Positions 3,007 through 22,897 of a DNA stretch of 29,339 bases are shown in pieces (position 1 is the stretch's first letter; every line of letters begins with the position of its first letter). The notes under the pieces were generated by a model. That model had not been told where the DNA came from, made no database searches, and saw nothing but the letters and a program-made list of their open reading frames with translations. A program made the position numbers and the translations under genes. The stretch is from a virus: the IMG/VR virus record IMGVR_UViG_3300001305_000002, positions 1 to 29,339 of that record. One strand, 5' to 3'.

Positions 3007-4117
3007 TATTTACTCCTGACATAAGTGATTTCTGATAGATCTCTTTACCTTTGCCAGGAACTAATTGACCTACTTTTTCATACAAGCGAGATACTATGTT
3101 GTCCCAGCTCATAAGTTGAGGAATTATCTCTGAAGCTAAATCTGCTTTCTGCTTAACTTCAGCACGATTTCTAAAGGTATGAAGCATGAGTGCTTTCATA
3201 TGATCTTTATCGGCCCTAGCGTTATAAACTGTAGGACAACCATCAAGAGGCATAAGTTTGTAATCTAAAGGATAAGAGTATTCAGGAGATAGCCATCCTG
3301 TGTGGCCTCCCCAATTAGTAGCAATAACTGCTCCACCCATTGATTGAAATTCTAGGGCAGGCATGTTCTTTCCTTCCCCGCGAGAAGGAGCACACAATAC
3401 GTGCTGTACAGAATAGAACTGCTTGAGCACATCTTCAGGCCAAGATGCGTAATGAACCTTTAATTTAGGAACCCATTGTTCCATAGCAGAATGAAGACCT
3501 AATGTCATAGTCTTAAGATGCAATTCTGCTGGCTCAAACTCTTCAGGGTATTCTTCTTTTAATTCTTTAAATGCCATGATAGTAACGAAAGGATCTTTCC
3601 TTTCATTCAGCATTCCAGTCATGCAGAAACCAAAGCGTTTACTGAACCAATCCTTTTCAACTTTAGGCCAATTCTCAGGTAGGAAGCCACCTTGTAATAC
3701 GCCTGTAGAGACCTTTGATTTATTTATGTACTCGTCAAAACAGTTCTTGGTTACTTCGTCATACCCGAGTAATAAATCATAAGTTTTTAATGCTTTACGT
3801 AATTTAGAACGACCAGTCATGTTGTCAAAATTAGTGAACTCCCACATACTCCACCCGACAGTAACTGTTGATGAAGATCGTTCTTGAGAGAGTAATCCTA
3901 GTTGCATAGGATCAACATGATGAATCATTAAATCGAATGGAGCTTCTAGACGTTTACCCAGCAGAGCTAATACATCTGGTGGTAACGGAGCATCCACATG
4001 AGTAGGGTGTAAATAAACATCTGCACCACTACGAATTAAGGCACGAGCTAGACCTATGCCATCATTACCATATCCTGTATAAACTGATACAGGAGTCTTC
4101 AATAATACTCTTAACAA
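2996..4117 (-). CDS. Glycosyltransferase, GT-B fold (GT4-like)
   Basis: N-terminal TGYG, then ERK and PSRGEGKNMPALE (E-x7-E motif) followed by VIATNWGG. Confidence 0.9.
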   Translation of the reverse strand: MLRVLLKTPVSVYTGYGNDGIGLARALIRSGADVYLHPTHVDAPLPPDVLALLGKRLEAPFDLMIHHVDPMQLGLLSQERSSSTVTVGWSMWEFTNFDNMTGRSKLRKALKTYDLLLGYDEVTKNCFDEYINKSKVSTGVLQGGFLPENWPKVEKDWFSKRFGFCMTGMLNERKDPFVTIMAFKELKEEYPEEFEPAELHLKTMTLGLHSAMEQWVPKLKVHYASWPEDVLKQFYSVQHVLCAPSRGEGKNMPALEFQSMGGAVIATNWGGHTGWLSPEYSYPLDYKLMPLDGCPTVYNARADKDHMKALMLHTFRNRAEVKQKADLASEIIPQLMSWDNIVSRLYEKVGQLVPGKGKEIYQKSLMSGVNNGN

Positions 4118-4164
4118 AATATCCTCCTGGGATTCTTATTTGTGTTGTTAAGAGTATTATCGGT
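4102..4164 (-). promoter_or_regulatory. ACCGATAA motif plus a 16-bp hairpin masking the start codon
   Basis: 4102-4117 ataatactcttaacaa and 4145-4160 ttgttaagagtattat form a perfect inverted repeat. The motif core is at 4159-4163. Confidence 0.7.
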
Positions 4165-4171
4165 CTAGCTG

Positions 4172-4651
4172 TCAGAAAAATACCGCATAGTATGCTGAAG
4201 CGATCATAATTCCGTCGCCATCAGTAATAGCTACTGGCTCACTTATGTCTACTAATCTATCACAAGCGACAGTAGCAATATCAGCCCAATATACTGTTGC
4301 AGGATCTGTTCTGTTTAAATACTTATCTATTACTTTAAAAGTATCGTTTATCTTCCATCTAACAGTCCTAGGATTTGCTAGATTACCATTACCATCTCTT
4401 GTACCGTTAGCCCAGATAGTAACTCGTAACCTTCTCCCTCTAAAACGAGAAGTAGGTAATGATGCTAGAGGACCAGCATCTTCTACGACAACAGCACTAA
4501 CAGCCTGATATTCATCGTATTCTAAGTTAACGAGAATTTCATCTCTAAAAATGAAAGGTTTCAATGTTAAATTAAATTTACCTACTGCATCAACTACTTC
4601 AGGAATGTTAAGAAGATAAAGTACCGCAGCTCCTTGCAGATCCTCTGCCAT
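4172..4651 (-). CDS. Tail terminator / tail completion protein
   Basis: Last gene of the connector cluster; size and the RLRVTIWA strand pattern are typical. Confidence 0.65.
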   Translation of the reverse strand: MAEDLQGAAVLYLLNIPEVVDAVGKFNLTLKPFIFRDEILVNLEYDEYQAVSAVVVEDAGPLASLPTSRFRGRRLRVTIWANGTRDGNGNLANPRTVRWKINDTFKVIDKYLNRTDPATVYWADIATVACDRLVDISEPVAITDGDGIMIASAYYAVFF

Positions 4652-4653
4652 AA

Positions 4654-5016
4654 TTACCTCCTAAAGAAATTATTGATTGCAGTAATGTATTGATGCTCCA
4701 TAGCAATAGCTGGAGTCAGGAAGTCATGTCGTCCTTCACGCTCACGTTCATATTCAGCATAATCAACAGGATTATGAACTCCAGATGACTTACCACCGTA
4801 AGAGATAGTTCCTTCCCAATCATTTTCAGTAGTAGAGCTATCTACATTACCACTTGACTTAAGTGATCCTGTAATAACGTGAACAGCAGACTGTGTTGCC
4901 TGAAATTGATTGGCTAAGATAGTTTCAAAATTAATTAAATCTGTCAAAGTAGGTCCATCAGCTAGACGATTGATTTCATCGTCTATGCCGTCTGTTAATC
5001 TTTCTATTCTTATCAT
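4654..5016 (-). CDS. HK97 gp10-like neck/tail completion protein
   Basis: VHVITGSLKSSG, YAEYE and FLTPA motifs, plus synteny. Confidence 0.7.
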   Translation of the reverse strand: MIRIERLTDGIDDEINRLADGPTLTDLINFETILANQFQATQSAVHVITGSLKSSGNVDSSTTENDWEGTISYGGKSSGVHNPVDYAEYEREREGRHDFLTPAIAMEHQYITAINNFFRR

Positions 5017-5429
5017 ACTGGCGCTCCTGACGGATAATTAAATCCTGCTTGAGCAACTTCAAATACCTGAACCTCAATGTGATGAGAGCCTTGGAAATCT
5101 TGAGCTTCGTCGGGGCGCATCTTGAGTAAAAATGAAGATCCTAGATAAGGGCCTTTGATCACTTTAATAATCTGCCCACCTTTTAACTCAGGAGTATTAC
5201 TACAGTACATGATTCCAGTACGATCAGGTGTTCGTCCAGCAACAATAGGAGCAGGTTGGTCTTTTCCTGGTCTTAAGAATGTCAGATCTAGTCTGCACTT
5301 CATTTCACCGGGTGCGCAGGTAGGATCAAAACTTGCGCTTGACTTGCTCCAGGACTGCACTCTAGCACCGTCTATAACGTCTGTAATGGATTGTAAAATT
5401 TCAACGGTACAACTGAATAAGTGTCTCAT
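5013..5429 (-). CDS. Head-to-tail stopper (head closure protein)
   Basis: 138 aa, beta-rich, C-terminal HHIEVQV, plus synteny. Confidence 0.65.
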   Translation of the reverse strand: MRHLFSCTVEILQSITDVIDGARVQSWSKSSASFDPTCAPGEMKCRLDLTFLRPGKDQPAPIVAGRTPDRTGIMYCSNTPELKGGQIIKVIKGPYLGSSFLLKMRPDEAQDFQGSHHIEVQVFEVAQAGFNYPSGAPV

Positions 5430-5440
5430 TATTCAGCTCC

Positions 5441-5977
5441 TTAAAGTAATTCATTCATTGATACTTCTGGACCTCTAAGAGTATCGATAGACCAAGCATT
5501 TTCTGCATCGCCTTGATAAGTTCCTGAAGATGCTCCAGCAATTCTAACTTTGCCAGCAGCAGTAGCTTCTAGGCCATCCCACTCCATGCCCTGAATAGAT
5601 CCTGTAGCTCCGACTGAAGATGCTCCTGATCTTAATTTACTTACTGCTAAATCAAACCAAGCAATGCCTGTAGCATCGCCTTTTTTAACTGCTGAAGTTG
5701 TCTTGCTGTAAGAATACGATCCAATAGTTTCAGACTGGTAAGGTGATGCAGAAGCTTCTTGATATGGCTGACTTAAGTAAATATTGTCAGCCATATCAAG
5801 AATACCATTTTTAGCTAGTTTATTTAACTGCTCATTCAATGGATAAGCTTCTAAATCAGTTGCTAAATAGAAAAGTAAAGTAGCTTGAGATAGTGCCTCC
5901 ACCGCAAAACTACTAAACGTATTACTTGCACGACCAGTGAAACTGGCTAATTCTGCTACAGTAGGTGGCACTAACAT
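5441..5977 (-). CDS. Head-to-tail adaptor
   Basis: PTVAELA N-terminus and the SETIGSYSYS motif typical of adaptors. Confidence 0.75.
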   Translation of the reverse strand: MLVPPTVAELASFTGRASNTFSSFAVEALSQATLLFYLATDLEAYPLNEQLNKLAKNGILDMADNIYLSQPYQEASASPYQSETIGSYSYSKTTSAVKKGDATGIAWFDLAVSKLRSGASSVGATGSIQGMEWDGLEATAAGKVRIAGASSGTYQGDAENAWSIDTLRGPEVSMNELL

Positions 5978-5983
5978 GCTATC

Positions 5984-6562
5984 TCATTTCTTTTCGAAGA
6001 AAACTTTTCCGTAACGCTTTACTTGATCGTCAGAAGATTGCTCATACCAAACGTTATCTTCAGTATCAGCATTACCTCTGCGGTTCTCATCTGAATCTTC
6101 CATAGTCAAAGACTCGCCTGCTTTCCAGACACGACCCTGTACAGTTAATCCGCTGTCAACGAATTCAATAACAATATGCTTATGGTCTTCGTCTAACTCG
6201 ACTAGTTCTTTAGCATTCATTGCAGCAGATTCCTGACGAACCTTAGCCTTGCGAGCCTTTTCTTCAAGACTGTTATCTGCTACCTGCAATTCAGGGTATG
6301 ACTTACTTACGTCATACTTGTTAACACCATCATCAACGATGACAGGCTCAGGATTGCGATCTACGAAAGTACCAGTTCCAGGGCTTTCCTGGTTCTTAAC
6401 AGTTTCGTCTACTTCATTAGCAGGGTAATTCTTTACAAACTCATCTGATGCTAGTGGTGTTTCAGTAGACTCACGAGATACTTCAGAAGTAACAGGGTTC
6501 TCCTGATTAACGACTGTCTCATCTACTTTAGGAGTTGTTGATTTTCTTGCTTTTGCTGTCAT
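5984..6562 (-). CDS. Acidic hypothetical protein with an internal duplication
   Basis: VDETVVNQENP and VDETVKNQESP repeat; N-terminal half looks disordered. Confidence 0.7.
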   Translation of the reverse strand: MTAKARKSTTPKVDETVVNQENPVTSEVSRESTETPLASDEFVKNYPANEVDETVKNQESPGTGTFVDRNPEPVIVDDGVNKYDVSKSYPELQVADNSLEEKARKAKVRQESAAMNAKELVELDEDHKHIVIEFVDSGLTVQGRVWKAGESLTMEDSDENRRGNADTEDNVWYEQSSDDQVKRYGKVFFEKK

Positions 6563-6573
6563 AATTATCCACC

Positions 6574-6912
6574 TTAGTCTTTTACATCGCTGTAGCGTTT
6601 AGCTAAGCGTCCTCGTAGTGCTTTTCCTCTTCTACCAAATTGTACTTCTAAAAAGCCTACAACTGAAGTAAGCATGACAATACCTAATACCCAGAACATA
6701 ATTAGTCGAACCCACTCGACCCCCGGAACATATACGCCCCAAATTCTTAAGCTTAAGTAGCCACACAAAAATACTACGCCAATTGCGAATATAGCTACGA
6801 CAGTTCCTACAAAACTCTTATACCACCTAGACAGGGTAAGATATAGGAATGTAAACATAGTAGAACTAACAGTAAATACAAGGAAGCCAATATCGCCCCA
6901 TAATTCTATCAT
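6574..6912 (-). CDS. Holin-like membrane protein (3 TM segments)
   Basis: Three hydrophobic segments and a basic C-terminal tail (GRRGKALRGRLAKR). Confidence 0.65.
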   Translation of the reverse strand: MIELWGDIGFLVFTVSSTMFTFLYLTLSRWYKSFVGTVVAIFAIGVVFLCGYLSLRIWGVYVPGVEWVRLIMFWVLGIVMLTSVVGFLEVQFGRRGKALRGRLAKRYSDVKD

Positions 6913-7509: not shown

Positions 7510-7546
7510 AAAAAGAAAAGCCAGGTAGCTCGTAAGCTACCTGGCT
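7510..7546 (-). terminator. Intrinsic terminator
   Basis: AGCCAGGTAGCT-TACG-AGCTACCTGGCT followed by TTTCTTTTT: 12-bp stem with a UNCG loop. Confidence 0.85.
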
Positions 7547-7554
7547 AAATTACT

Positions 7555-7589
7555 GCTTACATTTACAATAATCGGTCATAAATGTAAGC
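7555..7589 (-). promoter_or_regulatory. CCGAT motif centred in an 11-bp inverted repeat
   Basis: GCTTACATTTA-TGACCGATTATTG-TAAATGTAAGC. Confidence 0.6.
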
Positions 7590-7594
7590 TGATA

Positions 7595-8911
7595 TTAAAT
7601 TACGGACAACTCATCCCAGCCACGTTCTCCGGCTGATTTACCTACTACCATTCCTAGCATTCCTGGCTTTGACCATACACCAGCAGAATCATAGAACCAC
7701 TGAGAAGACTTTTCAGCTTCAAGTGCAGGACAACCAAAGAAGGTACGTCCTCGATCCTCAATAACATTGAAGTGATGGTAGTGAGCTGAAAAGTATAGAG
7801 AAGTGTCTACTAGTTCAGCGGTACGTCCAAGAATCTGCTTTTCAATAGCACTCTTAGAACTTACGCCGCCTGTCTTAGATCCTGATCCATTAGAGATGTG
7901 ACCATGAGTGAAATTAGCTTTGATGCCAGAAAGCTCTAGATTAACATCTTGACGTTCCTTAGCGATCTGCCAAGTCAGCAGTTCACCAATATTAGTTTCA
8001 TTGAAAGTCTTTTGAACTAGAGCAGCAATCATAGTAGATGAGTTATCATAAATACTAGTCAGTGCCTTATTACCGCCGAAACGGGTATGCTCACCATGAT
8101 TAGAAGGAACAGATCCAATAAGCATAGGCAGACGCATTGATTGAGCTAGAGTTTTAATACTCCATACTCTCATATCAAAATCTAGTTCAAGCTGATCTGA
8201 GTAACTAAGTTCTACTTCATAAGGCTGAGAAGCATAATTACCTACAGCACCTTCATGCTCGTCACCCATGAATACTAGAGCAATATTTCCAATAGGCAGT
8301 CCTGCATCTGTAAGATTCCTGATTCGAGTCAAGTGACCTTCAATGCCGTTATTCCAGTTAGCAACAGCTTCCTTAGTTCCAGGCTTACCTAGCTGAGGAT
8401 CAGCAACAAGTATAGTATATGTAAGATCGCTACCATATACAGTTTTACGAGAATAATCACCTATTGCTTTTAGGTGCTCTCGCCATCCTTCAATATCAAA
8501 CTTCTCTTCTAGATCAGGCTCAACTTCTGCTTTCTTTTGAATTCTAGCAGCATAGCTGTACCTGAAATCATTTGGCTTTCCCCAAGCCTTCATAGTTACA
8601 GGCTGAATGACTTCGAATACTTCAGGATCAAGACCCCAAAGCTTAATAGTATCTGTCCAGTCTGTAATAGGCTCAGCAACCATGCCTGTCTTAATTACAC
8701 CAGAATCCCCAGTTAGGGAAATACTTCCACCTTCACCACTAGAATCATCAGGAATGTCTTCTGAACCAGCATAAAGGTTTCCATTACGAAATTCTCTCTG
8801 GCGGCGCTTAAGCGTTTCAATGTTTTTTCCAGGAAAATTAAGTTGAAAATCTTCAAGTGTACTACAAGCAAGAAGCTTGTCAGTGTTTTCTTGAGTCCAT
8901 TCAATATTCAA
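7595..8911 (-). CDS. Calcineurin-like metallophosphoesterase (Mre11/SbcD-like)
   Basis: Motifs ADPQLG, MGDEHEG, SNHGE, THGH and AHYHH in the canonical order. Confidence 0.85.
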   Translation of the reverse strand: MNIEWTQENTDKLLACSTLEDFQLNFPGKNIETLKRRQREFRNGNLYAGSEDIPDDSSGEGGSISLTGDSGVIKTGMVAEPITDWTDTIKLWGLDPEVFEVIQPVTMKAWGKPNDFRYSYAARIQKKAEVEPDLEEKFDIEGWREHLKAIGDYSRKTVYGSDLTYTILVADPQLGKPGTKEAVANWNNGIEGHLTRIRNLTDAGLPIGNIALVFMGDEHEGAVGNYASQPYEVELSYSDQLELDFDMRVWSIKTLAQSMRLPMLIGSVPSNHGEHTRFGGNKALTSIYDNSSTMIAALVQKTFNETNIGELLTWQIAKERQDVNLELSGIKANFTHGHISNGSGSKTGGVSSKSAIEKQILGRTAELVDTSLYFSAHYHHFNVIEDRGRTFFGCPALEAEKSSQWFYDSAGVWSKPGMLGMVVGKSAGERGWDELSVI

Positions 8912-8965: not shown

Positions 8966-8994
8966 AGTCTAGCACACAGGTACGACATTGTCAC
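8966..8994 (-). promoter_or_regulatory. Housekeeping-sigma (sigma70/HrdB-like) promoter
   Basis: GTGACA-N17-TAGACT with an extended -10 TG, just after a terminator and upstream of the phosphoesterase. Confidence 0.65.
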
Positions 8995-9040: not shown

Positions 9041-9083
9041 TATCAGTTGTTCAGGTCTAAGTCAAATCGGACATTATATGACA

Positions 9084-10195: not shown

Positions 10196-11194
10196 TTAGG
10201 GAGTGAGGTCTGCAATTACAAATTGCTCAGGGCGAGTTACGATAGGTAGGAAGTTGTACTCAATAAGAACCTGACGACCTGATGGGTCTGGCTCGAACCA
10301 GCTCTTAGTGTAACGACCAATGAATCCATTAGGTGCTGAGAAGTCCGCAGTTGGTCCTTCTACTAGCTCTACTGGGCGGTTGGCATCAAAATTACCTAGA
10401 AGCAGAGTATCATCTGAAAGGTAACCAACTTCATCACCGTTATCAGTTTCGTATACATGCTCAACAGCAGTCCAGTCCATTCCGAGGAATCCTGGCATAG
10501 TTCCAGTTGAGTAGTACTGATCACGCATTCTGTCAGAAAGTAGGTATCCAGGTGTTGAACCGTTAGATACGAATGAGTGAATAATACGGTCAAGTGTATT
10601 CTGAGTAGCATAAGCCTTATTTGCAGCTACGCGGCCGTGGTTAAGAACTAGTTTCTTCCATGCGTTGATGTTGTCAACAATCTGAACAGGTGTAGCAGTT
10701 GCCCAAGATACGGCAGCAGTTACTTTATGATCTGCTGGCATCTTGTAGTCTACAGTAGCCTGTACATCTGGGAAGTCAAGTACTAGGTTTCCACCTAGAG
10801 CCTTCCACAGAGTATATTCAACAAAAGCATCGATACGTGCGTTAAGGTCCTGAAGTTCACGTACTACTTCACGCTCTGCGTTCTGAAGTCCAGTAGGAGT
10901 ACCTACTTGACGTAGCCACATAAGAGTAGTAGGTTCGAAAACCTTCTTCTCACGAACGTATAGTAGGCTAGCAGTTGCCTGCTCGCGTCCTAGACGACCT
11001 ACGATGTGGGCTTCAGAGTTAGGAACGTTAGGCTTTGCCATCTGGCGTGAACCACGAATAATATCCCAAGTGAAAGTCTGAGTAGGTGACTGACGCTTTG
11101 GAGTGCTGTTCATCAGAATCATATTCTGAGCGGTTGGGAGCTTTTCTACTACGCCCAACAGAACCAGCGGTTCTAGTAAGCTAATATCTGGCAC
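10196..11194 (-). CDS. Major capsid protein (lambda gpE-like)
   Basis: About 332 aa with C-terminal W..PDPSG...LP...RP pattern and biased codon use. Start is GTG 11194 behind AAGGAG rather than 11209. Confidence 0.9.
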   Translation of the reverse strand: MPDISLLEPLVLLGVVEKLPTAQNMILMNSTPKRQSPTQTFTWDIIRGSRQMAKPNVPNSEAHIVGRLGREQATASLLYVREKKVFEPTTLMWLRQVGTPTGLQNAEREVVRELQDLNARIDAFVEYTLWKALGGNLVLDFPDVQATVDYKMPADHKVTAAVSWATATPVQIVDNINAWKKLVLNHGRVAANKAYATQNTLDRIIHSFVSNGSTPGYLLSDRMRDQYYSTGTMPGFLGMDWTAVEHVYETDNGDEVGYLSDDTLLLGNFDANRPVELVEGPTADFSAPNGFIGRYTKSWFEPDPSGRQVLIEYNFLPIVTRPEQFVIADLTP

Positions 11195-11328
11195 AAGGAT
11201 CTCCTTCAATAATTAGGGGCAGCAGAAAATTTGCATTCCCGAAAAATTAACTAGCGACCTCTTGAGGCCCGACCTGCACTGCCATTTAAGGCTCAATCCA
11301 GTTGGTCTATTTTTATTGTCTTTTCTCT

Positions 11329-11336
11329 TTATCGGC
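11329..11336 (-). promoter_or_regulatory. GCCGATAA motif upstream of the capsid gene
   Basis: Exact match to the sigma28 -10 octamer, about 135 nt before the start. Confidence 0.7.
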
Positions 11337-13345: not shown

Positions 13346-13383
13346 GTCTGACCTCCTATCTAATTTAACAATCGTCAAGATAT

Positions 13384-13419
13384 AGAAAATGGGACACTAT
13401 CAATTGATAGTGTCCCATT
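13384..13419 (-). terminator. Terminator formed by a perfect 32-bp palindrome
   Basis: aatgggacactatcaattgatagtgtcccatt (13388-13419) with TTTTCT on the minus strand, after the decoration gene. Confidence 0.8.
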
Positions 13420-13856: not shown

Positions 13857-14363
13857 TCAAGCTAGCTTTGCTAGACGCTCGGCTTCTGCTGTTACATCTA
13901 CTTCAACTTTTTCATCATCTGCTGAAGTTCCTACTTCTTTACCACTAAGATTTACAATAGCCTCAGTTGGTAGAAGTTCTGCGTAAAGATCTTTGTTAGT
14001 TAGGTACAAGGAAATCATTGCCTTTTCCTTGGCTGGTGCGATAAAACCATCACGAACCTTAGTCTTTACTTCAAATGCTGCTTCTGCTTCCCTGCCTGAA
14101 AGTTCTAGCTTCTCAACACGGTTTGAAAGCGTAACATTGTCTTTAGCCAATTCAACTACTGCGCCGACAACCTGCTCAACGTTAGCTGTTGAATCATCAG
14201 AAGAAAGCTTAACTACGCCTGCGTCTGTTAGAGCAGCAACAAGCTTGTTTGAAAGCTCGGCAGCAGGATCAGTTTCAGCAGGCTTGTCTGCCTCAGCCTG
14301 GAGAGCAGCAACATCAATATTGTGCTCAGCCTTCAGAGCTGCGATAAGCTCATCTTTAGTCAT
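13857..14363 (-). CDS. Nested in-frame scaffolding protein (168 aa)
   Basis: Internal AAGGAG-N9-ATG (MTKDELIAALK); GCCGATAA at 14464-14471 upstream. Confidence 0.7.
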   Translation of the reverse strand: MTKDELIAALKAEHNIDVAALQAEADKPAETDPAAELSNKLVAALTDAGVVKLSSDDSTANVEQVVGAVVELAKDNVTLSNRVEKLELSGREAEAAFEVKTKVRDGFIAPAKEKAMISLYLTNKDLYAELLPTEAIVNLSGKEVGTSADDEKVEVDVTAEAERLAKLA

Positions 14364-14993
14364 AGGATTGTTCTCCTTTACTACTGGTTCTTCTTGTGAA
14401 CCTGTATCGATTTCTACATTGTTTTCTGTAGTCGGCTCAGTAAGAAGAACCGCTTCCTCAGAATTATCGGCTGATGCCTTAACAATTTCTTCGTAATCTT
14501 CTAAATTAGTAATGTAAGGTCTATTAGTTACCGCAACATGACAAAGTGTCGGACCAGACTTCTTACCAGTATTAGTATCCTCGTAATCTAGAGAAAGCAT
14601 CGCAGACGCACCAATGTAGGTTTTATCTTTGAATCTTTCTGCATTTCTACGAGCATCGATTACTGCGTATACTTTGTCACCGCTAACTTCAATATCGATT
14701 ACTTCACCAACATTACGATCTGGATCTTCTACATGCTGATTAGAATCATTAGCTAAAGGCACCTGAACAATAGGACATACTTTATTGTCAAAGTTACTTT
14801 TTAGCTTGGTAACAAAATCATCATCTATTTTGATGCGAGACTTTGTTACTGGATGAATTAAATCACCCTTAGTTAAGATATGCTTCCTGAACAAAGTACC
14901 TGAGCTTTTTCGAGAAAGCTCAATGCGAGCTTCATCCATTTCACCGTAGGCTTCAGAATCTTTGCTAGGAATAATAACTAGTTCATTAGTCAC
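13857..14993 (-). CDS. Prohead protease / scaffold (Mu gpI-like)
   Basis: NQH, YIGASAML and GPTLCHVAVTNRPY motifs, then an acidic linker and a helical C-terminal half. Confidence 0.8.
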   Translation of the reverse strand: MTNELVIIPSKDSEAYGEMDEARIELSRKSSGTLFRKHILTKGDLIHPVTKSRIKIDDDFVTKLKSNFDNKVCPIVQVPLANDSNQHVEDPDRNVGEVIDIEVSGDKVYAVIDARRNAERFKDKTYIGASAMLSLDYEDTNTGKKSGPTLCHVAVTNRPYITNLEDYEEIVKASADNSEEAVLLTEPTTENNVEIDTGSQEEPVVKENNPMTKDELIAALKAEHNIDVAALQAEADKPAETDPAAELSNKLVAALTDAGVVKLSSDDSTANVEQVVGAVVELAKDNVTLSNRVEKLELSGREAEAAFEVKTKVRDGFIAPAKEKAMISLYLTNKDLYAELLPTEAIVNLSGKEVGTSADDEKVEVDVTAEAERLAKLA

Positions 14994-14994
14994 T

Positions 14995-15031
14995 ATTACC
15001 TCCTATTTTGCCAACATGGTAATCATCGGCA
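14995..15031 (-). promoter_or_regulatory. GCCGATGA motif with overlapping inverted repeats before the protease gene
   Basis: TGCCGAT/GTTGGCA and ATTACC/GGTAAT pairings; the second covers the end of the SD GGAGGT. Confidence 0.6.
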
Positions 15032-15320: not shown

Positions 15321-17168
15321 TTATTTTTCTCCGTTTGGTGTAGTTCCCCAACCACGCTTCTGGAATTTCCTCCAGTCGAATTCTCGTTTTACAGACTTAG
15401 TTCCGTCAGGGAATTGGAATTGTACTGTACCGTCAGCAAAGACAAGTAATTTAATACCTTGTGCTTTAGGGTTACCGAGAATTCTTAAAATTCCAGCGCC
15501 ACTAGTAGTCTTTTCTGAATTGACTCCAGGTTCAGACTTCTGCTGACCCTGTGTTCTAGGATCAGATGATTTAGTAATAGTTCCTTCTGCTGGAGCAGGT
15601 GCCTTTGATCTCTTAGTAGTCGCAGGCTTTACTTTATTACCTAATACTGTGCCTATAGGCAAACCATAACGCCTTACACCTTCTTGAGAGTTAACTCGAC
15701 GCTCTCCGGCTAATTCAACTACTGTACGATCATCTTCGGGTTTATTGCCGTATTCAATACCCATAACAAAACCAAAGTCTTCCATGTTAGATAGAGTAAA
15801 TCCTTCAGGTAACAATTCTGTAGGAATAGTATTCTCTGGTGATGGAACTCCTTCTGGAGATAGTTCTCCACCAGCATCTACTGCTTCAGCACTTGCAGCT
15901 AATTCTTCTTCTCGCTCGATAGTGTCATAATCAATTTCAAAACCGAATTCATCAGCCATCTTCTTCTCCGCTTCACGGAAGAATTCCTTAGTGAAGTTTC
16001 CTCCTTGAATCCCAGCTAATGAAGTAAAGACATCCTTGATGGCATCCTTCTGATCATCAGTAAATGCTCCCCAACGAAACTGAGGATATTTGCCTGAATT
16101 GAAGTTCCAGTCAATGAATCTAGGAATGATGTAATGATTAATAATAGATGCGATTTCAGTCATGATTGTCTGAAGCATCATAACGAACAAAGAGTCAGTC
16201 TGCTTACCGAAGTCAACTAAACTTGCGTCTCCACCAGAACCTTGCTGCTCATCAAAGAATGCAGCCAAAATAGATTTTGACATCTGAGAATTGTGATGAT
16301 TAATATAGGACAAGAAATCGAAATTGCCACCTTCTTTAAGAAGATCTACATCATAACCTTCAGGCTTAGTCATCCACTGAGCTACACCTAGATCAGATAA
16401 ACCTTGACGGAATGCGTTTAGTTCATCTGTTGAGTGGTCTTCAGGAACAGTACCTACACGTGTACCTACCGCAGATCTTTGTGCAGCCAAGTGCATAAGG
16501 TAATAAAGTTTAAGTTTCTTGTCATAATGGTAATAAGCACTCTGGAAATAACTTAAACCGTAGAATCTGTTTTCCTCTTCTTGGGCGGCATAATATACAC
16601 AAGAATCTCTAGAAATCTTAACATCAACAAGTTTACCGCCCGGCTTTTGAGTAACTTGTCTAAAACCATCAAAGCTACCATCCTCGGTTACGAGAAATCT
16701 AACAGTATGGGCAGGTAGATAATTTAACTTTCTAAGAATCCATTTACCCTTTAGTGGCCCTGTCTTAGCAAAATCAAATACCATTTCAAACGGTGCGAAG
16801 CCATCAAAGATAGCTTGAAGCATCTGAGCAATAACTCTAGTAAATGGAATACTCATTCCACCGACATTAGGTGGCAGATTAAACAATTGATCAATAAAGT
16901 CAGCTTCGTCTTGCCCGCCTTCTAGATTAGAAGCAGGTACGAATGTCGCAGTCTGCAATGCTGCTCGAATAGGCAAAGTAATAAGACGGTACAATGCACG
17001 AGCCTGCCCGTCTGTCTGCCTCATTCTGACAAGTTGATCTATAGTTACGTCTGCTCTCTTTTGAACAAGGTGAGAACCCTGATAAGGTTCAGTGAATGGC
17101 ATATAATCACTAAAGCCTCGCTCTACGAGAGGGCGAGGCTTAGGTGTTGCCATGTTGTCTTTAGCCAT
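15321..17168 (-). CDS. Portal protein (Mu gp29/DUF935-like) with a C-terminal extension
   Basis: Follows TerL. DGFAPFEMV, YGLS and YINHHNSQMSKSIL motifs; roughly 190 extra residues after the portal core. Confidence 0.88.
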   Translation of the reverse strand: MAKDNMATPKPRPLVERGFSDYMPFTEPYQGSHLVQKRADVTIDQLVRMRQTDGQARALYRLITLPIRAALQTATFVPASNLEGGQDEADFIDQLFNLPPNVGGMSIPFTRVIAQMLQAIFDGFAPFEMVFDFAKTGPLKGKWILRKLNYLPAHTVRFLVTEDGSFDGFRQVTQKPGGKLVDVKISRDSCVYYAAQEEENRFYGLSYFQSAYYHYDKKLKLYYLMHLAAQRSAVGTRVGTVPEDHSTDELNAFRQGLSDLGVAQWMTKPEGYDVDLLKEGGNFDFLSYINHHNSQMSKSILAAFFDEQQGSGGDASLVDFGKQTDSLFVMMLQTIMTEIASIINHYIIPRFIDWNFNSGKYPQFRWGAFTDDQKDAIKDVFTSLAGIQGGNFTKEFFREAEKKMADEFGFEIDYDTIEREEELAASAEAVDAGGELSPEGVPSPENTIPTELLPEGFTLSNMEDFGFVMGIEYGNKPEDDRTVVELAGERRVNSQEGVRRYGLPIGTVLGNKVKPATTKRSKAPAPAEGTITKSSDPRTQGQQKSEPGVNSEKTTSGAGILRILGNPKAQGIKLLVFADGTVQFQFPDGTKSVKREFDWRKFQKRGWGTTPNGEK

Positions 17169-17173: not shown

Positions 17174-17210
17174 CCTCCTACTGATATCTTTTTTAGATAT
17201 CGGCAGAAGA
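17174..17210 (-). promoter_or_regulatory. GCCGATAT motif inside a hairpin masking the portal SD
   Basis: TCTTCTGC-C-GATATCT-AAAAA-AGATATC-A-GTAGGAGG. Confidence 0.7.
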
Positions 17211-17213: not shown

Positions 17214-19043
17214 TTAAAATTCTTCAGAATAAAGCATATTGTGGTTTAAACCGGCAGGCAATTGTACTCTTTCGCCCATAAAAAACTGTGCTTGCTGATA
17301 AAAAGCTTCTTCACCGCCTTCATTTTCTCTTCCACCTTGCTCAACAGCTCCAAAAACCGCACAAGCCATAGCATCAGCTTCATCCTTAGATCCCATTCTA
17401 GGGTGATCAATTTTACCGTTAGGCAGAATGGTTAATCCTAGAAGCTCATCAACAAGTAATTCACGGTGTTTAGCAATCAATCTGCCGTCGTACATAACAT
17501 CCATGAGATTTCTCCACGGCTCATTAGTACGGTCTGTAGATACTCTTTTGGATTCAATTCCTGACTTATCGAGAATCTGCATAGAGTCACGAGATTCAAA
17601 ACCATCAAAAGTAAATCTCTTAATTCTGAATCCTCTTTTCTTCAATTCATATGCTAATTCACGAGCCCATCGAATTTGAATTTCTCTGGGAGGACTTTCC
17701 CCTTTAGCTGCTTCAAAAGAGAATACAAAATCTACTTTAACAATAGGTCTCATTTCTCGTATGCTAGCAACTTCACCATTCTCCAAAGTGACTTGAGATT
17801 CAAATTCTTCTTTACGAACGACATGAGCCATAGAGATTCCAGCTCTGTCCTGCGTAACAGCTAAGTCTCCGTGCATACAGTATTGTGCACCTTTAATAGG
17901 TTTAAAATCTGGAGCGAAGTCGTATTTTACTTCCCAGTTATCGCCAGATTTGTAATAAATTACTTCAACAGGTTGGCGATCTGCTTTAGTAAATGCAGAT
18001 CTGACTAAGAATTCATTTCTGAAGAATGGATTAGACGCCTTACTAGGCTTACACTCGTATTTAGCTTTAGCCATAGCAGCATCTTCTTCATAGTCTGCTA
18101 CATAAATCTCAGGAACTAATTCGTCTGTTCCTTCTACTTTTACTCTTTCGAATTTCTTAAAGTTAGGATTAACTACCCAAGTAGGTAAAGGACCAGAAGC
18201 ATAATGACGAGACTTCTCACCCTTCTTAATAACATCTTCATGAGATTGAGCAGTTAATCTCTGAATAATAGATCCTAGATAACGAGGATAAGAAATACGT
18301 ACGTTCTTGAAAGTAATAGGGAAACGAGTAGATGATGATGTACGCATCATATCTAGAATACCTTCTACAGTATTCTGAGGCACTCGTCCTGTTCCATTTC
18401 CTCTCACCTCTTCTTTAGACTTAAAACCATCAACCTCATCCGCTACGCCGAGAAGCAGGTTAAGACCTTCCTGAGATTCGGCTTCTGAGTGCCCTGAGAT
18501 GGCCTCTACGTTTTTAGCATATACGATAGCACCACGAGTAGGGGCAGCTTTATTTTTAAACCAGGGAGACGTTCTCACGAGCTTTTCTACAGGATCGAAG
18601 AATGCTCTCTGAGCCTGTTGTGCATTCATCGCAACGTTAAGAAGGTGAATAGAATCCTGAGCGGGCATACCGAAGTATTCTTGTGGAGATCGCAAGCACA
18701 AAAGGAGATACGCTACACGCAAAGAAATAGTTCTGCATACGTGACCTTTACCGGAACCTTTACCCCACTGAAGATTAACGAAGTTAACCATTCTGAGAGG
18801 TTCAGACCAATAAGGATCAAAGTGCTCCCCCATTAAAGGATAAAGCTCAGGATAATAAATTCTTTCTGCAATTCTTACAGCATCGTATTGCACAGGAGAT
18901 AATTGCCAAGCATCTCCTGCACCCATGAATTTCTTATCTCTAATGAATACATCTAAAGGAACAGGCTGTTCTTCGAATATTTGTTCAAGATCAGACTCTG
19001 GGCTATCCTCCAGGGCTCCATTCAGTAAGTCTGAAAGATTCAT
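17214..19043 (-). CDS. terL: Terminase large subunit
   Basis: Q motif (LSPVQ), Walker A WGKGSGKG, Walker B LLGVADE, and nuclease acidic residues (HGDLA, FDGF, KDEADA). Confidence 0.92.
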   Translation of the reverse strand: MNLSDLLNGALEDSPESDLEQIFEEQPVPLDVFIRDKKFMGAGDAWQLSPVQYDAVRIAERIYYPELYPLMGEHFDPYWSEPLRMVNFVNLQWGKGSGKGHVCRTISLRVAYLLLCLRSPQEYFGMPAQDSIHLLNVAMNAQQAQRAFFDPVEKLVRTSPWFKNKAAPTRGAIVYAKNVEAISGHSEAESQEGLNLLLGVADEVDGFKSKEEVRGNGTGRVPQNTVEGILDMMRTSSSTRFPITFKNVRISYPRYLGSIIQRLTAQSHEDVIKKGEKSRHYASGPLPTWVVNPNFKKFERVKVEGTDELVPEIYVADYEEDAAMAKAKYECKPSKASNPFFRNEFLVRSAFTKADRQPVEVIYYKSGDNWEVKYDFAPDFKPIKGAQYCMHGDLAVTQDRAGISMAHVVRKEEFESQVTLENGEVASIREMRPIVKVDFVFSFEAAKGESPPREIQIRWARELAYELKKRGFRIKRFTFDGFESRDSMQILDKSGIESKRVSTDRTNEPWRNLMDVMYDGRLIAKHRELLVDELLGLTILPNGKIDHPRMGSKDEADAMACAVFGAVEQGGRENEGGEEAFYQQAQFFMGERVQLPAGLNHNMLYSEEF

Positions 19044-19044
19044 A

Positions 19045-19809
19045 TCAGTACCTTACTGCCATAAGGTTTAGAACAAAAGAAGAAAACTGCATGAGTTCCT
19101 CTTCTTCCATCTTTAACTGCTGAGAAAGACGAACAGTATCCAGCAGTGATCTGTTTACTTTATCAGTACAAGGAATCAAAGCAGCCAATTCTAATTGAGC
19201 ATCTGTCAAAGGTGATTCAAGATTAGATAATTCTACATAGGCTTGCTTTACAGGAATCTCTTGACCGAATGTAGCCACACCTTGCTTGTCAACAGTATAA
19301 GGAACCTTTACATACTGCTGGTTTTCGTCTAAGCCACTTTCAATATTGACAATAAGGTAATCACTCCACATCTCACGAACCCAACGGTAAGGTCCATTAG
19401 TATCTGAAGATGGGTAATTCTCTTTGTACTGACGACGAATATCATCAACATTCCAAGAAGAAAGATTCAAAATCATATCATCCTGGTGAGATAGCTTAGT
19501 CTTGTTGTTAAGTTTGGCAGCCTTCTTCTTTGATTCCCATTCTGCCAGAGCCTTAGCAGCTTTAGCACGAGTGCCTGCATTAACTCCACCACCACCTGAT
19601 GCCCATGTCTTTACACGACCTACTGCAATAGCAATAGACTGAGAAATAGAATGAGAGCCATTACGGTGAACAGCACGAGCAATACGACAAATATAATCTG
19701 GTAATCCTCCAACTGCATCCTCTTCCAGCCAGTTATTTTTTCCGGCCTTCTTAGCTAGCGTACAGCCCGCTAAATGCAGTACTAGGGCTTGGTCTTCAGT
19801 ATCGAACAC
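19045..19809 (-). CDS. Head-morphogenesis-associated hypothetical protein
   Basis: GGLPDYICRIA...AIAVGRVKTWA domain and many [VL]xL[SA] motifs; lies directly before terL. Confidence 0.55.
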   Translation of the reverse strand: MFDTEDQALVLHLAGCTLAKKAGKNNWLEEDAVGGLPDYICRIARAVHRNGSHSISQSIAIAVGRVKTWASGGGGVNAGTRAKAAKALAEWESKKKAAKLNNKTKLSHQDDMILNLSSWNVDDIRRQYKENYPSSDTNGPYRWVREMWSDYLIVNIESGLDENQQYVKVPYTVDKQGVATFGQEIPVKQAYVELSNLESPLTDAQLELAALIPCTDKVNRSLLDTVRLSQQLKMEEEELMQFSSFVLNLMAVRY

Positions 19810-19858
19810 AGCATATTCTCCTTAGAATAAATCTAGACAGTATATGCTGTTAATCGGA
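19808..19858 (-). promoter_or_regulatory. TCCGATTA motif plus a hairpin enclosing the SD and start
   Basis: ACAGCATAT (19850-19842) pairs with ATATGCTGT (19816-19808). Confidence 0.65.
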
Positions 19859-19863
19859 TAAAC

Positions 19864-19896
19864 AAAAAATGCGACCCAGCCGAAGCCAGATCGCAT
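19864..19896 (-). terminator. Intrinsic terminator
   Basis: ATGCGATCTGGC-TTCG-GCTGGGTCGCAT-TTTTT. Confidence 0.8.
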
Positions 19897-19901
19897 CTTA
19901 A

Positions 19902-20177
19902 TCATTCTTCTGGGTTAGCCCAATGAATATGTCCCATCCCAGTTTTCCAAGTATTTTTCTTACTGTAAGATTTTTTTATAAACTCGAAGATGTCCTCTCT
20001 TGGCGGCATATCAATAGCTCTACCTTGAACAAATGAATAATTTACAGGAGTAAACCTTCTAATCTCTTCACCGTCTCGGCCACCTTCCAGATAAACTACT
20101 TCTCTTGTATCTAGATCATCGTAGCAATAGACATCTTTACCTGCCCATTCAAACCTAGATAAAAATCTAGCTCGCAT
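19902..20177 (-). CDS. Hypothetical protein
   Basis: 91-aa ORF packed between its neighbours, SD AGGA. Confidence 0.65.
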   Translation of the reverse strand: MRARFLSRFEWAGKDVYCYDDLDTREVVYLEGGRDGEEIRRFTPVNYSFVQGRAIDMPPREDIFEFIKKSYSKKNTWKTGMGHIHWANPEE

Positions 20178-20180
20178 TAA

Positions 20181-20630
20181 TCAGATTCCTACTTTTTTAA
20201 ATTCTTCTACTAATTCAGCAAAAGCTGCTCTCTTAGCAGGATCATTTGCTGAAGACTTGAATACACGAACAATAATATCGCGTACTTCACGCATAGTATT
20301 CTCGCGGTCTTCCTGAGCCGTAGCCTTAGCCAGCATTTTCTGGAATTGAGCTAACAGACTAAGAAGATAAACATTCTGCTTATCCTGAGTCATAGAATTC
20401 AAATTCTCAAAACCCTGAGATTCCTTATACTTAATATAGATATAAGTAGTAGCAATACGCTCAATCAAAACATAGTTAGCAGTTTGCATAGGAACATTTT
20501 TAGCTTCTTCAAGTAATTTCTGAACCAGTGCAGTGTGTAGCATTCTATAATTTAAATCCGGTACGGCGCTCTCAGGTAGCTCAAATGCAGCTTCTAGGAA
20601 AGCTGGAGCATGGTTGATTCCATCAGTCAT
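20181..20630 (-). CDS. Helical protein, candidate terminase small subunit
   Basis: ATG 20630 behind GGAGG; all-helical; upstream of terL and preceded by GCCGATAG (core 20654-20658). Function inferred from position only. Confidence 0.45.
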   Translation of the reverse strand: MTDGINHAPAFLEAAFELPESAVPDLNYRMLHTALVQKLLEEAKNVPMQTANYVLIERIATTYIYIKYKESQGFENLNSMTQDKQNVYLLSLLAQFQKMLAKATAQEDRENTMREVRDIIVRVFKSSANDPAKRAAFAELVEEFKKVGI

Positions 20631-20729
20631 AATTACACCTCCTGGAATCAACTATCGGCTCAAACAGGTAAACCGCAGGATGGACAGATATTATCCTGTC
20701 CTGGAATCTGACACCAGGCACAGACCTTA

Positions 20730-20855
20730 CTATCCTTTAATGCGATTAAGATCTTCTTTAAGAGTTTTTGCATCTTTCAACAAATCCTTACTATCTTTAT
20801 GTGCTTTTGTTGCTTTCTTCAAAAGAGAAGCAGAATCAATCGACAAAGGAGTCAA
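20730..20855 (-). CDS. Small basic helical protein (41 aa; not in the ORF track)
   Basis: TTG start, MTPLSIDSASLLKKATKAHKDSKDLLKDAKTLKEDLNRIKG; fills the gap after thioredoxin. Confidence 0.45.
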   Translation of the reverse strand: MTPLSIDSASLLKKATKAHKDSKDLLKDAKTLKEDLNRIKG

Positions 20856-21111
20856 TCCAATCCTGTAAGAATGGTTCAGACTTCTGACCTATGACTCTAC
20901 CCAGTACCTTATCGTTTTCATCCAATAGAACTAGAGTCGGAATAGATCGAACATCATACTCATTCATAACATCTTCATTTTCTGGAGCATCAGCATCGAT
21001 CTTTAACACTTCCAGTTTTCCTGCGTACTGAACTTCTAACTTCTCCAGAATAGGAGCCATCCTCTTGCACGGCAGACACCAATCCGCCCAGAAATCTATC
21101 AATTTCAACAT
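20836..21111 (-). CDS. Thioredoxin
   Basis: IDFWADWCLPCK active site and VRSIPTLV cis-Pro loop. Confidence 0.93.
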   Translation of the reverse strand: MLKLIDFWADWCLPCKRMAPILEKLEVQYAGKLEVLKIDADAPENEDVMNEYDVRSIPTLVLLDENDKVLGRVIGQKSEPFLQDWIDSFVD

Positions 21112-21949
21112 CTATGTTTTCCTCACTGACAATAGTCTCTTCTTGCTCAACTATTGTAACACGAGGACTCTTGAAAAGCTTCCTACCAGAACTCAAGAAT
21201 TCAGTAACCCGCTGCTCAACAACAGACTCTTCTTGCAATTCATCAATGTAAGTTTGGAATCTAGCCTCAAGAACATCCTGACGAGTAGTAGATTCTCTAC
21301 GGTATACAGCAGTCATAGCATGATCAGAGAAAAGTAACCAATCATCAAGAGTTGAAGTGTAGGTGAGTATATATTCCTTGGGGAGGAACTCAATCTTAGT
21401 ACACTTAGATCTGTTACCTCTCTTGCCCCACTCATTAACTTTAATGAACTTTTGCTCGACAAGAACCTCAAGAGCCTTACGGATAGTTAAGTATCCTAGC
21501 TCTTTACCATACTTAGTATTGATCCATACGTTGATAGAATCAAAAGCAAAGAGAACCTCATGTTTGAATTCAGTCGCAGCTCTGTGCAGGATAGCCTCTG
21601 CCACCATAATGGTATTAGCTTTAGCATCACTACGGCGAACACTGAGGTTAGTCTTGATATCTTCTAAGGTGGCAAAAGCCTGAATGGGGATAGTGTAAAC
21701 ATATTTCTTTACATTAACCAAGGCATTGTAAAGAGTCTTCTGACCTGTAGAAGAGTTAAGAGACTGAGGAAAGGCAAAAGCCTTGAATTTGCCATCAGAC
21801 ATAGTCATGGCAATAGGATTTTCAGCAAGTTTGATGAGAGTTTCAGATGGAGTCCCGTGTTTCAGGAACAGCTTCATCTCTTCTGGTTGATGCGTCCACA
21901 TGTACGCAGCCCAGGAATAAACTAGAGTCTTACTTACTTTCTTTGACAT
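20990..21949 (-). CDS. Putative winged-helix DNA-binding protein
   Basis: GYLTIRKALEVLVEQKFIKVNEWG helix-wing pattern; has its own sigma70-like promoter. Confidence 0.55.
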   Translation of the reverse strand: MSKKVSKTLVYSWAAYMWTHQPEEMKLFLKHGTPSETLIKLAENPIAMTMSDGKFKAFAFPQSLNSSTGQKTLYNALVNVKKYVYTIPIQAFATLEDIKTNLSVRRSDAKANTIMVAEAILHRAATEFKHEVLFAFDSINVWINTKYGKELGYLTIRKALEVLVEQKFIKVNEWGKRGNRSKCTKIEFLPKEYILTYTSTLDDWLLFSDHAMTAVYRRESTTRQDVLEARFQTYIDELQEESVVEQRVTEFLSSGRKLFKSPRVTIVEQEETIVSEENIDVEIDRFLGGLVSAVQEDGSYSGEVRSSVRRKTGSVKDRC

Positions 21950-21956
21950 TATAATT

Positions 21957-22043
21957 AATCCAATTTTTCGTGTCGGAAGTCTCCAGCCTTTAGAAAGACA
22001 GACCAGGGTAGCTACTCCCTGGCCTCAACACGAACGTTGGATC
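21957..22043 (-). ncRNA. Candidate structured cis-regulatory leader RNA (three-way junction)
   Basis: Four nested helices; the G-U pairs work only on the minus-strand transcript. Confidence 0.55.
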
Positions 22044-22061
22044 TTACTAAATGCTCCCTAT

Positions 22062-22091
22062 ATCTTACCCCAGAACTATCATCTGTGTCAA
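22062..22091 (-). promoter_or_regulatory. Housekeeping-sigma promoter
   Basis: TTGACA-N18-TAAGAT. Confidence 0.75.
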
Positions 22092-22145
22092 CCCTCCCTA
22101 GGAATATATACTTACCTACACTTCAAACTGATGCTAGACTGAGGT

Positions 22146-22286
22146 ATGGACATAATATTTGTTGTAATCTTCGGAGCAACTTTCTGGCTGTACATGATGT
22201 ATGAGTTATTTCTTGCACCTACAGTATTCGATAATTTACCATCTCTTACCTCCGATAAAAATAGTGAAGACTATAAGGAGGAATAA
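22146..22286 (+). CDS. Small single-TM protein (46 aa, probably leaderless; not in the ORF track)
   Basis: MDIIFVVIFGATFWLYMMYELFLAPTVFDNLPSLTSDKNSEDYKEE. TGCTAGACT -10 lies 5 nt before the ATG, and TAATG overlaps the next gene. Confidence 0.6.
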   Translation: MDIIFVVIFGATFWLYMMYELFLAPTVFDNLPSLTSDKNSEDYKEE

Positions 22287-22897
22287 TGGGAGTAATCTCA
22301 GATCGTATGAATTTAAAACCAGGAGATCTTGGATTCACTAGAATTACAGGATTCACTGGGTGGTGGGTAGCTAGAGGACAATCTCTTATGGGAGATGCTA
22401 ACAGATTTACTCACGTGTTTATTGTTATGGATGATGATACTGTCATTGAAGCTATGCCTAATGGAGCAAGATTCGCTCCATTAGATCGAGAATATAAGAC
22501 TGATGTGTTGTATGCTAGACTACCGTTGACCAACGAGCAACGTCAGCAAGTCGTGGTTGAGGCGAGGCGTCTCATGGCTCGTCCAGGAGGCATCAAATAC
22601 AGCTTCACAGACTACGCTGCGCTTGCGTTAAAACATTGGGGTATCAACGCTAGGCTTTTGAATAATTACATTAAAAAATCCGGCAGGATGATCTGTAGCC
22701 AACTTGCTGACTACCTGATCTCTCATGCCGGATTCAAGTTATTCAATGATGGTAGATTATCTCAGGATGTTACTCCAGGAGATTTAGTTTATGCTACAGA
22801 TCCTCGCCTTAATGAATCTATTGCGGGAGCTTTTGTACTGGGAATGCAGAAAGCAGGTCAACCTTCTCAGTTGCCTGATGCTGAAGATCCACTCTGA
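22286..22897 (+). CDS. Permuted papain-like NlpC/P60 enzyme (YiiX/YaeF-like)
   Basis: LKPGDL, FTHVFI, VIEA, ICSQL and VTPGDL; His precedes Cys. Confidence 0.82.
   Translation: MGVISDRMNLKPGDLGFTRITGFTGWWVARGQSLMGDANRFTHVFIVMDDDTVIEAMPNGARFAPLDREYKTDVLYARLPLTNEQRQQVVVEARRLMARPGGIKYSFTDYAALALKHWGINARLLNNYIKKSGRMICSQLADYLISHAGFKLFNDGRLSQDVTPGDLVYATDPRLNESIAGAFVLGMQKAGQPSQLPDAEDPL

Follow-up and report, generated by a model that had tools for sequence, protein, structure and literature searches.

In bacteriophage T4, the ribosome-binding sites (RBS) of genes e, soc, 49 and I-TevI are sequestered in a hairpin, and a late promoter is located in the DNA encoding the 5' strand of that hairpin; the same holds for mobE of phage Aeh1 (PMC3014915). 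Gene 49 encodes endonuclease VII and I-TevI is a homing endonuclease (PMC3014915). A second relevant system is the sigma-28 promoter class, whose -10 consensus GCCGATAA (PMC12784957; consensus also PMC8325347) lies at positions -15 to -8 of the P. aeruginosa fliC promoter, where the FliA residues Y76, R80 and D87 stack on -11A and contact -12G/-13C (PMC12784957). Here, we describe the pentamer CCGAT, which recurs in short gaps before genes, in or beside hairpins predicted to hide the RBS or start codon, in IMG/VR virus record IMGVR_UViG_3300001305_000002. The window analyzed comprises the first 29.3 kb (29,339 nucleotides) of this 108,159-bp linear viral contig (41% GC, estimated to be 80% complete) from an uncultured soil phage. 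The reading that we consider probable is that CCGAT marks late promoters inside these RBS-hiding hairpins, that the promoters are read by a FliA/WhiG-type phage sigma factor, and that only RNA made from a gene's own promoter would be translated.

The late block of the window is encoded on the minus strand and includes genes for a glycosyltransferase (GT), a lambda-E-type capsid protein, a Mu-gpI-like protease/scaffold, a Mu-type portal and the large terminase. The contig (G000) was compared with uncultured relatives whose portals are 72-78% identical, among them G001, a complete genome of 135,654 bp with terminal repeats. A nucleotide search of cultured phages with the window gave no match. 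Among cultured phages, Microbacterium phage Magritte is closest (portal 48%); its late genes overlap without gaps, and it consequently yields no comparable leaders. The CCGAT arrangement is absent in distant high-GC relatives (portal 37-51% identical), and an Rfam scan of the window returned no family at threshold.

Predicted occlusion of ribosome-binding sites downstream of CCGAT

Over the whole window, CCGAT shows no enrichment (20 copies, 23 expected). No 5-mer is more enriched in the sense-oriented gaps upstream of genes, where CCGAT occurs 9 times versus 0.70 expected (Poisson 5.6e-8, Bonferroni 6e-5) and ranks level with GGAGG. Short gaps contain 11 of the 20 copies, in sense with the next gene and mostly 23-43 nt 5' of its start codon. 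The motif is kept at the orthologous gaps of the relatives, even where the flanks diverge.

The accessibility of each ribosome site was expressed as an opening cost, the free energy needed to make positions -15 to +12 single-stranded, with z-scores calculated relative to leaders having a dinucleotide-shuffled 5' part. Across the contig, the mean opening cost of 14 motif leaders is 14.5 kcal/mol, as opposed to 8.8 kcal/mol for 83 genes carrying a Shine-Dalgarno (SD) sequence but no motif (Mann-Whitney p 2e-5), and the mean z is 2.1 versus 0.09. Nine leaders exceed a z of 1.8: those of the GT, the portal and genes 19809 and 22286 in the window, and those at 63225, 72208, 82715, 94395 and 102078 outside it. 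Together with the weaker leader of gene 20630 (z 1.3), 9-10 of the 14 short leaders are occluded, or locked, in this way. The pattern is reproduced in G001, where z is above 2.9 in 9 of 20 candidate motif leaders and 2 of 80 controls (Fisher 4e-6). An earlier note on this window had proposed that motif-bearing leaders hide the RBS or start codon, a claim borne out relative to shuffled leaders and motif-less genes in both genomes; letter-by-letter comparison also located every stem that it quoted, all but the protease stem being part of minimum-energy folds. The occluded leaders of the window, and the motif copy preceding the GT gene, are the following.

4102 to 4160, minus strand: GT leader hairpin, a perfect 16-bp stem with its 5' arm at 4145-4160, overlapping the AT of the motif, and its 3' arm at 4102-4117
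4159 to 4163, minus strand: CCGAT before the GT gene, predicted -14 to -10 of a late promoter and positionally conserved in 8 relatives
17174 to 17210, minus strand: portal leader hairpin, TCTTCTGC-C-GATATCT ... AGATATC-A-GTAGGAGG, followed by the ATG at 17168
19808 to 19857, minus strand: leader of gene 19045-19809, with the motif at 19853-19857, the 5' arm at 19842-19850 and the 3' arm at 19808-19816 over the GTG start
20613 to 20658, minus strand: leader of gene 20181-20630, with the motif at 20654-20658 and a 9-bp stem (20644-20652/20613-20621) enclosing SD and ATG
22249 to 22288, plus strand: leader of gene 22286-22897, with the anti-SD CCTCC (22249-22253) overlapping the motif (22252-22256) and the SD GGAGG at 22277-22281

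In the GT leader (z 6.7), the 3' arm covers the TTG start and four codons, and the SD AGGAGG (4123-4128) is overlain by an inner AUCC/GGAU stem. The 5' arm of the portal hairpin (z 2.4) is formed by an anti-SD and CCGAT (17199-17203), with the SD GGAGG in the 3' arm; its many G-U pairs fit sense RNA and not a DNA cruciform. In the leader of gene 19809 (z 3.4), ACAGCATAT (19850-19842) pairs with ATATGCTGT (19816-19808). The leader of gene 22286 has a z of 2.3. The label NlpC given to this gene could not be confirmed: it is without Pfam match, and its PHROG match is to an enoyl-CoA hydratase/ClpP-like family (possibly ClpP/SppA-type). Overall, the 5' partners of the ribosome site are located between about 30 nt before and 12 nt after the motif, peaking 2-8 nt past it, with loops of 13-27 nt. 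Only two stems (16 and 18 bp) approach the length of RNase III substrates, most being 9-10 bp. Pairing of the SD or start codon in a stable hairpin of the long transcript, the hallmark of the T4 type, is thus predicted thermodynamically and is backed by covariation for the GT and the portal.

In the GT leader, an alignment of 8 relatives contains 17 pairs, 6 of which have both sides changed, and 96% of cells are paired; this covariation was exceeded in 0-1 of 500 shuffles, and slid controls were 34-49% paired. The portal leader, aligned over 12 relatives, contains 14 pairs, 3 with both sides changed (5 of 500 shuffles). These compensatory changes (6/17 and 3/14 pairs), found by the covariation check that the earlier note had suggested, indicate that the stems are maintained by selection. 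Scored per orthologue, the lock is present in 10 of 11 portal leaders, 6 of 7 GT leaders and 2 of 4 leaders of gene 20630, whose orthologues pair the motif region with SD or start in differing ways. The relatives of gene 19809 keep a stem with different sequence and register, and all four lose 4-10 kcal on truncation; because registers differ, column-wise covariation is not countable on one alignment and per-sequence folds were used. Conservation of the stems in relatives hence applies to the portal and the GT, while genes 19809, 20630 and 22286 are variable. Several orthologues keep the lock by means of a different partner segment, and the leader at 25638, unlocked here, is locked in G001, from which it appears that locks have evidently been gained, lost and rebuilt across the relatives.

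Chance complementarity in AT-rich leaders would be a trivial explanation, and some of the quoted stems are indeed short and individually unremarkable (6 bp in the protease leader, 5 bp for CCTCC/GGAGG). Against it stand the shuffle controls, the motif-less genes, the replication in a second genome and the compensatory changes, which together make it highly improbable.

Alternatively, the hairpins may be intercistronic devices, either coupling translation or stabilizing the 3' end of the upstream cistron, and their nearness to the motif may reflect the very short gaps. An upstream stop codon does lie 8-13 nt before the motif at five sites, and the portal and 102078 arms follow the stop by 4 and 7 nt, so that a terminating ribosome could melt them. 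However, the arm lies 44-72 nt past the upstream stop at 19853, 22252 and 82715, the 63225 leader has no upstream open reading frame, and motif-less SD-bearing genes show no such occlusion though most are equally tightly packed. We therefore judge coupling very unlikely as the origin of the hairpins.

The motif as a probable promoter element

A logo was built from 35 motif sites in two genomes. It consists of a position that is not C, then CCGAT-W-W, preceded by an AT-rich flank; the first position after CCGAT is W in 32 of the 35 sites and the second A or T in 29. Across these sites, the logo corresponds to the -10 element of sigma-28 (FliA/WhiG) promoters. When the FliA geometry is applied to the motif, the transcription start (+1) is predicted 10 nt after the T of CCGAT. 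Purines occupy this position in 29 of 35 sites, and no other position 3' of the motif is as informative. As a strict description, a canonical sigma-28 promoter was rejected, there being no -35 box.

G001 encodes a sigma factor of 239 aa between a SNF2 helicase gene and a dUTPase gene (L152:1330-2049, corresponding to G001:133907-134626). Its best NCBIfam match is TIGR02479 FliA_WhiG (E 9e-34, full length), and it scores above the cut-off for Pfam Sigma70_r4. Orthologues with 59-63% identity are present in G002-G004 (L153-L155), and a 40% homologue occurs in one high-GC relative. Among cultured phages, only Magritte has a homologue, a weak one annotated as 'DNA binding protein'. The ends of the contig analyzed here are equivalent to 120.5 kb and 13 kb of G001, and exactly the sigma-bearing segment of G001 is absent from it; about 28 kb of the genome is missing. 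On alignment of the phage sigma factor with P. aeruginosa FliA, Y76, R80 and D87 correspond to F, R and D. Since the relatives encode the cognate sigma family with this -10 core, CCGAT most likely constitutes the -10 element of late promoters that have no -35 element, and we infer that it is read by this FliA/WhiG-like phage sigma. Literature searches returned no report of CCGAT late promoters nor of a FliA/WhiG-like phage sigma.

The earlier note had named, as its own alternative, an action of the motif in RNA: CCGAU would be a site for a protein, sRNA or nuclease that opens the stems. In this reading, which would resemble the activation of mom translation by Com in phage Mu or else an activation by processing, a phage or host protein, small RNA or endonuclease would open or cut the hairpin, and the RNA would start upstream of the motif. 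Such a role would accord with the placement of the motif, always in the stem, at the stem base or in the loop, and with a geometry that is not uniform, arms being found before, across or after the motif. Copies also adjoin terminator hairpins, which a promoter does not explain. Nevertheless, it matches exactly the -10 core of a sigma family encoded by the relatives, has an AT-rich upstream flank and is followed by a purine at the predicted +1. No Com-like zinc ribbon (PF10122) was found in G000 or the complete G001, six locks would survive a cut at the motif, and at 19853 a terminator 9 nt upstream leaves little room for another promoter. An RNA site is accordingly considered unlikely, and a promoter element is preferred.

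Promoter geometry also bears on the release of the hairpins. Truncation in silico at the predicted +1 opens all leaders and lowers the mean opening cost of the locked ones from 17.0 to 7.1 kcal/mol, below the control mean. The individual values fall from 21.0 to 9.0 kcal for the GT, from 13.4 to 5.2 kcal for the portal, from 18.1 to 10.4 kcal for gene 19809 and from 15.5 to 5.3 kcal for gene 22286. Folding with and without the 5' arm, as the earlier note had advised, thus gave the expected difference. An RNA starting right after the T would still be locked in six leaders genome-wide and in four within the window, those of the GT and genes 19809 and 20630 among them. The geometric claim of the earlier note, that the 5' arm is largely missing from a transcript initiated just after the motif, consequently applies to a start about 7-10 nt past the motif and fails for a start directly behind it.

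If late mRNAs started at or within the motif, the hairpins could instead be 5'-terminal stem-loops that stabilize the mRNA and damp translation, without any switch between long and short RNA. The 5' arm begins 0-3 nt after the motif in the GT, 19809, 20630, 72208, 82715 and 102078 leaders, as it does in protective hairpins, and the 19809 lock sits behind a terminator. In contrast, the portal, 22286, 63225 and 94395 arms lie upstream of or across the motif and would be missing from such RNAs, and yet the portal stem is the best conserved (10/11). Moreover, sigma-28 geometry puts +1 ten nt after the T, and permanently hidden start codons of essential genes would need a further opener. Terminal stem-loops of this kind seem quite unlikely to us in comparison with release from a downstream start.

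Possible read-through RNA and the proposed lock

In the mechanism that we propose, host core RNA polymerase carrying the phage FliA/WhiG (sigma-28) factor would recognize CCGAT(W)(W) as the late-promoter -10 and start about 10 nt past its T. At about half to two-thirds of the promoters, the 5' arm of a hairpin would be encoded by the DNA between some 30 nt before and 12 nt after the motif, with the SD and/or start codon of the following gene as its 3' arm. Transcripts arriving from upstream, be it from a host-type early promoter or an upstream late promoter, would contain both arms and leave that gene translationally silent, while RNA from the gene's own CCGAT promoter would lack the 5' arm and be translated.

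A source of such upstream RNA is suggested by a host-type promoter class, TTGACA-N17-TAGnnT, which occurs 58 times versus about 10 expected, nearly all copies lying at 32-104 kb on the minus strand of the contig. The copies are very regular and often preceded by GG. Outside the window, five CCGAT sites are embedded among early units, each of them in a locked leader. In four cases, an early-type promoter is located 0.4-1.6 kb upstream and no intrinsic terminator intervenes. The genes concerned encode an HNH endonuclease, endonuclease VII (PF02945, 54 bits), a hydrophobic membrane protein of 47 aa and two proteins of 46 and 130 aa, the larger of which has a weak endonuclease match. Coordinates of three of these genes, and of a host-type promoter in the window, are given below.

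G000:62592-63182: HNH endonuclease gene, locked
G000:82027-82674: endonuclease VII gene, locked
G000:72027-72170: gene of the 47-aa protein, locked
22062 to 22091, minus strand: host-type promoter TTGACA-18-TAAGAT, directed toward gene 21949-20990 and on into the 20654 leader

Likewise, there is no terminator between TerL and the portal, nor between the genes upstream of the GT. Read-through RNA carrying both arms is therefore plausible from the arrangement of promoters and terminators. Host sigma-70-type promoters were rejected as drivers of the late block itself, where they are not enriched (52 versus 46 expected). One gene in the block, 7595-8911, has its own copy of the host-type class at 8966-8994 (minus strand), GTGACA-17-TAGACT with an upstream TG.

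The lock probably prevents translation of nucleases and a small membrane protein from early read-through RNA. At the portal and the GT, the upstream RNA is itself late, so that locks there would set amounts and not timing: within late operons, the low-copy portal and the GT would probably be limited to own-promoter RNA, with the high-copy scaffold/protease and capsid genes unlocked. Tentatively, this may be extended to a general rule of gene dosage, not timing only, though we hold that extension to be doubtful. Late read-through RNA would then be blind for the portal, the glycosyltransferase and the nucleases, each made only from its own sigma-28-like promoter, with scaffold and capsid made from all RNA; the promoter-then-terminator units at 7571 and 9066 would obey the same 5'-end logic, acting on termination or making small RNAs.

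The motif copies that depart from the lock, and two that precede terminators, are as follows.

2752 to 2756, minus strand: CCGAT before gene 2132-2689, not locked (z -0.4)
14991 to 15029, minus strand: leader of the protease/scaffold (Mu gpI-like) gene, with the motif at 15025-15029 and no RBS lock (z -1.4; 0 of 9 orthologues)
13352 to 13389, minus strand: 'fibre cassette' leader, in which TTTTCTAT, the variant motif ACGAT and ATAGGAGG come after a terminator
25638 to 25642, minus strand: CCGAT before gene 25262-25603, not locked here (z -1.2); its G001 orthologue (G001:96181) is locked (z 3.3)
11331 to 11335, minus strand: CCGAT at the head of the conserved, roughly 135-nt leader that precedes the major capsid gene (start GTG near 11194)
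7519 to 7589, minus strand: CCGAT at 7571-7575 in the loop of a 14-bp hairpin, then an intrinsic terminator at 7519-7546; conserved in L002, L003, L004 and L007
9003 to 9070, minus strand: CCGAT at 9066-9070, then a conserved spacer and a terminator; conserved in L002, L003, L004 and L007

Several observations weigh against locked sigma-28-like promoters. First, on the promoter side, positions -36 to -28 carry no information above background in the 35 sites, which therefore lack the TAAA box of sigma-28 promoters, and G is found at -15 in only 14 of them (never C). The G001 sigma factor scores below the curated FliA/WhiG cut-offs, and a profile search of our own contig gave neither Sigma70_r2 nor Sigma70_r4 matches, its sigma gene being assumed from the relatives. 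Secondly, on the side of the hairpins, the leaders at 2752, 15025 (protease), 25638 and 29663, 4 of the 14 short leaders, are unoccluded, as is that of the capsid gene. Six locks would persist if RNA started within about 4 nt of the motif. Orthologous locks vary, gene 22286 being significantly locked in 0 of 2 orthologues and gene 19809 in 1 of 4 by z-score. A strong terminator at 19866-19899, 9 nt upstream of the 19853 motif, should make read-through rare; the 19809 lock is kept in some relatives despite it. Finally, the two conserved copies at 7571 and 9066 are directly followed by intrinsic terminators, an arrangement that a simple promoter reading leaves unaccounted for.

The earlier note had gone further and had the lock apply across the morphogenesis programme, which the unlocked protease/scaffold and long capsid leaders contradict. 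Two of the stems that it quoted as locks do not act as such in our folds. The protease pair ATTACC/GGTAAT is present, but the minimum-energy fold of that leader uses other pairs; the gene itself has a weak Mu-like_Pro match. The fibre-cassette pair around GACGATT is weak and G-U-rich (9.6 versus 8.2 kcal) and adjoins ACGAT instead of CCGAT. The T4-like reading of the earlier note nonetheless retains the association of hairpins with the motif, the compensatory changes, the release from the predicted +1 and the sigma factor of the relatives; what fell away is universality.

RNA started at 7571 or 9066 should end after about 40-55 nt, and these units could be small RNAs or attenuators. The 7571 hairpin has a loop of 7 nt, and the CTTAC of its 5' arm recurs in the terminator loop of several relatives. 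An anti-terminator was rejected for this unit, as the short RNA still folds the full terminator.

Two further observations concern the capsid and protease/scaffold genes. The capsid leader (11194-11335, minus strand) contains a block conserved in relatives, GACCAnCTgg..TGAGCC..GGCAGTGCAGGTCGGGCC, which has no Rfam match. Within the protease/scaffold gene (13857-14993), an in-frame CCGAT at 14466-14470 (minus strand) is flanked by nucleotides that are unusually conserved in all relatives (GCCGATAATTCnGAnGAAGCGGTTCTTCT). By analogy with Mu I/Z, it could serve as a late promoter internal to the gene, giving rise to a nested scaffold product.

Relation to known systems

If the proposed reading is true, transcript 5' ends, beyond promoters alone, decide which cistrons of a polycistronic phage RNA are translated, a point of consequence for annotation. 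The motif further provides a testable regulon, that of a -10-only CCGAT promoter, for a previously uncharacterised FliA/WhiG-like phage sigma factor, and promoter plus lock would form a compact module for engineering.

Compared with sigma-28 (FliA/SigD/WhiG) promoters, TAAA-N15-GCCGATAA (PMC12784957, PMC8325347), the phage sites share the invariant CCGAT core followed by A/T-rich positions, the flipped -11 A and the G/C read by conserved R and D residues, and a sigma factor of the same family is encoded in the phage relatives. They differ in lacking the -35 TAAA and in a -15 position that is A, G or T. The sigma factor is here phage-encoded and falls under the curated cut-offs of its family. 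Sigma-28 targets flagellar and sporulation genes, whereas the phage motif precedes virion, nuclease and other late genes.

The Com/mom system of Mu offers another parallel: there too, the RBS of a late gene is concealed by a hairpin, in a phage whose portal is of the Mu type, and a short RNA site by the stem could in principle serve an activator. In contrast to Mu, which has one target, many are found here, neither G000 nor G001 encodes a Com-like protein (PF10122), and the motif matches the promoter element of an encoded sigma factor.

The closest likeness is to T4. In both cases, the SD or start codon is hidden in RNA from upstream promoters, and a short, -10-only late promoter lies in or beside the 5' arm, so that late RNA would lack the arm. 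Gene classes agree as well, with endonuclease VII and an HNH endonuclease locked here and gene 49 and homing endonucleases in T4; the device would guard the same kinds of genes and, in addition, virion genes inside late operons. The promoter differs (CCGAT versus TATAAATA), as does the sigma factor (FliA/WhiG-like versus gp55), and the lineage is unrelated, that of soil phages of 108-136 kb with a Mu-type portal. The scale differs too: the four classic T4 cases compare with 9-10 locks here and 9 in a relative. Several of the locks, such as those of the portal and the GT, belong to late operons in which RNA from upstream is likewise late, and their effect, here predicted from sequence, would be on amounts and not on timing. 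The evidence partly supports a mechanism of the kind known from T4, found in a new lineage with a different sigma factor and promoter, at much greater density and in part inside late operons. It suggests that the late-promoter-in-hairpin device of T4 arose independently in an unrelated phage lineage, as a common design element used for about ten genes per genome.

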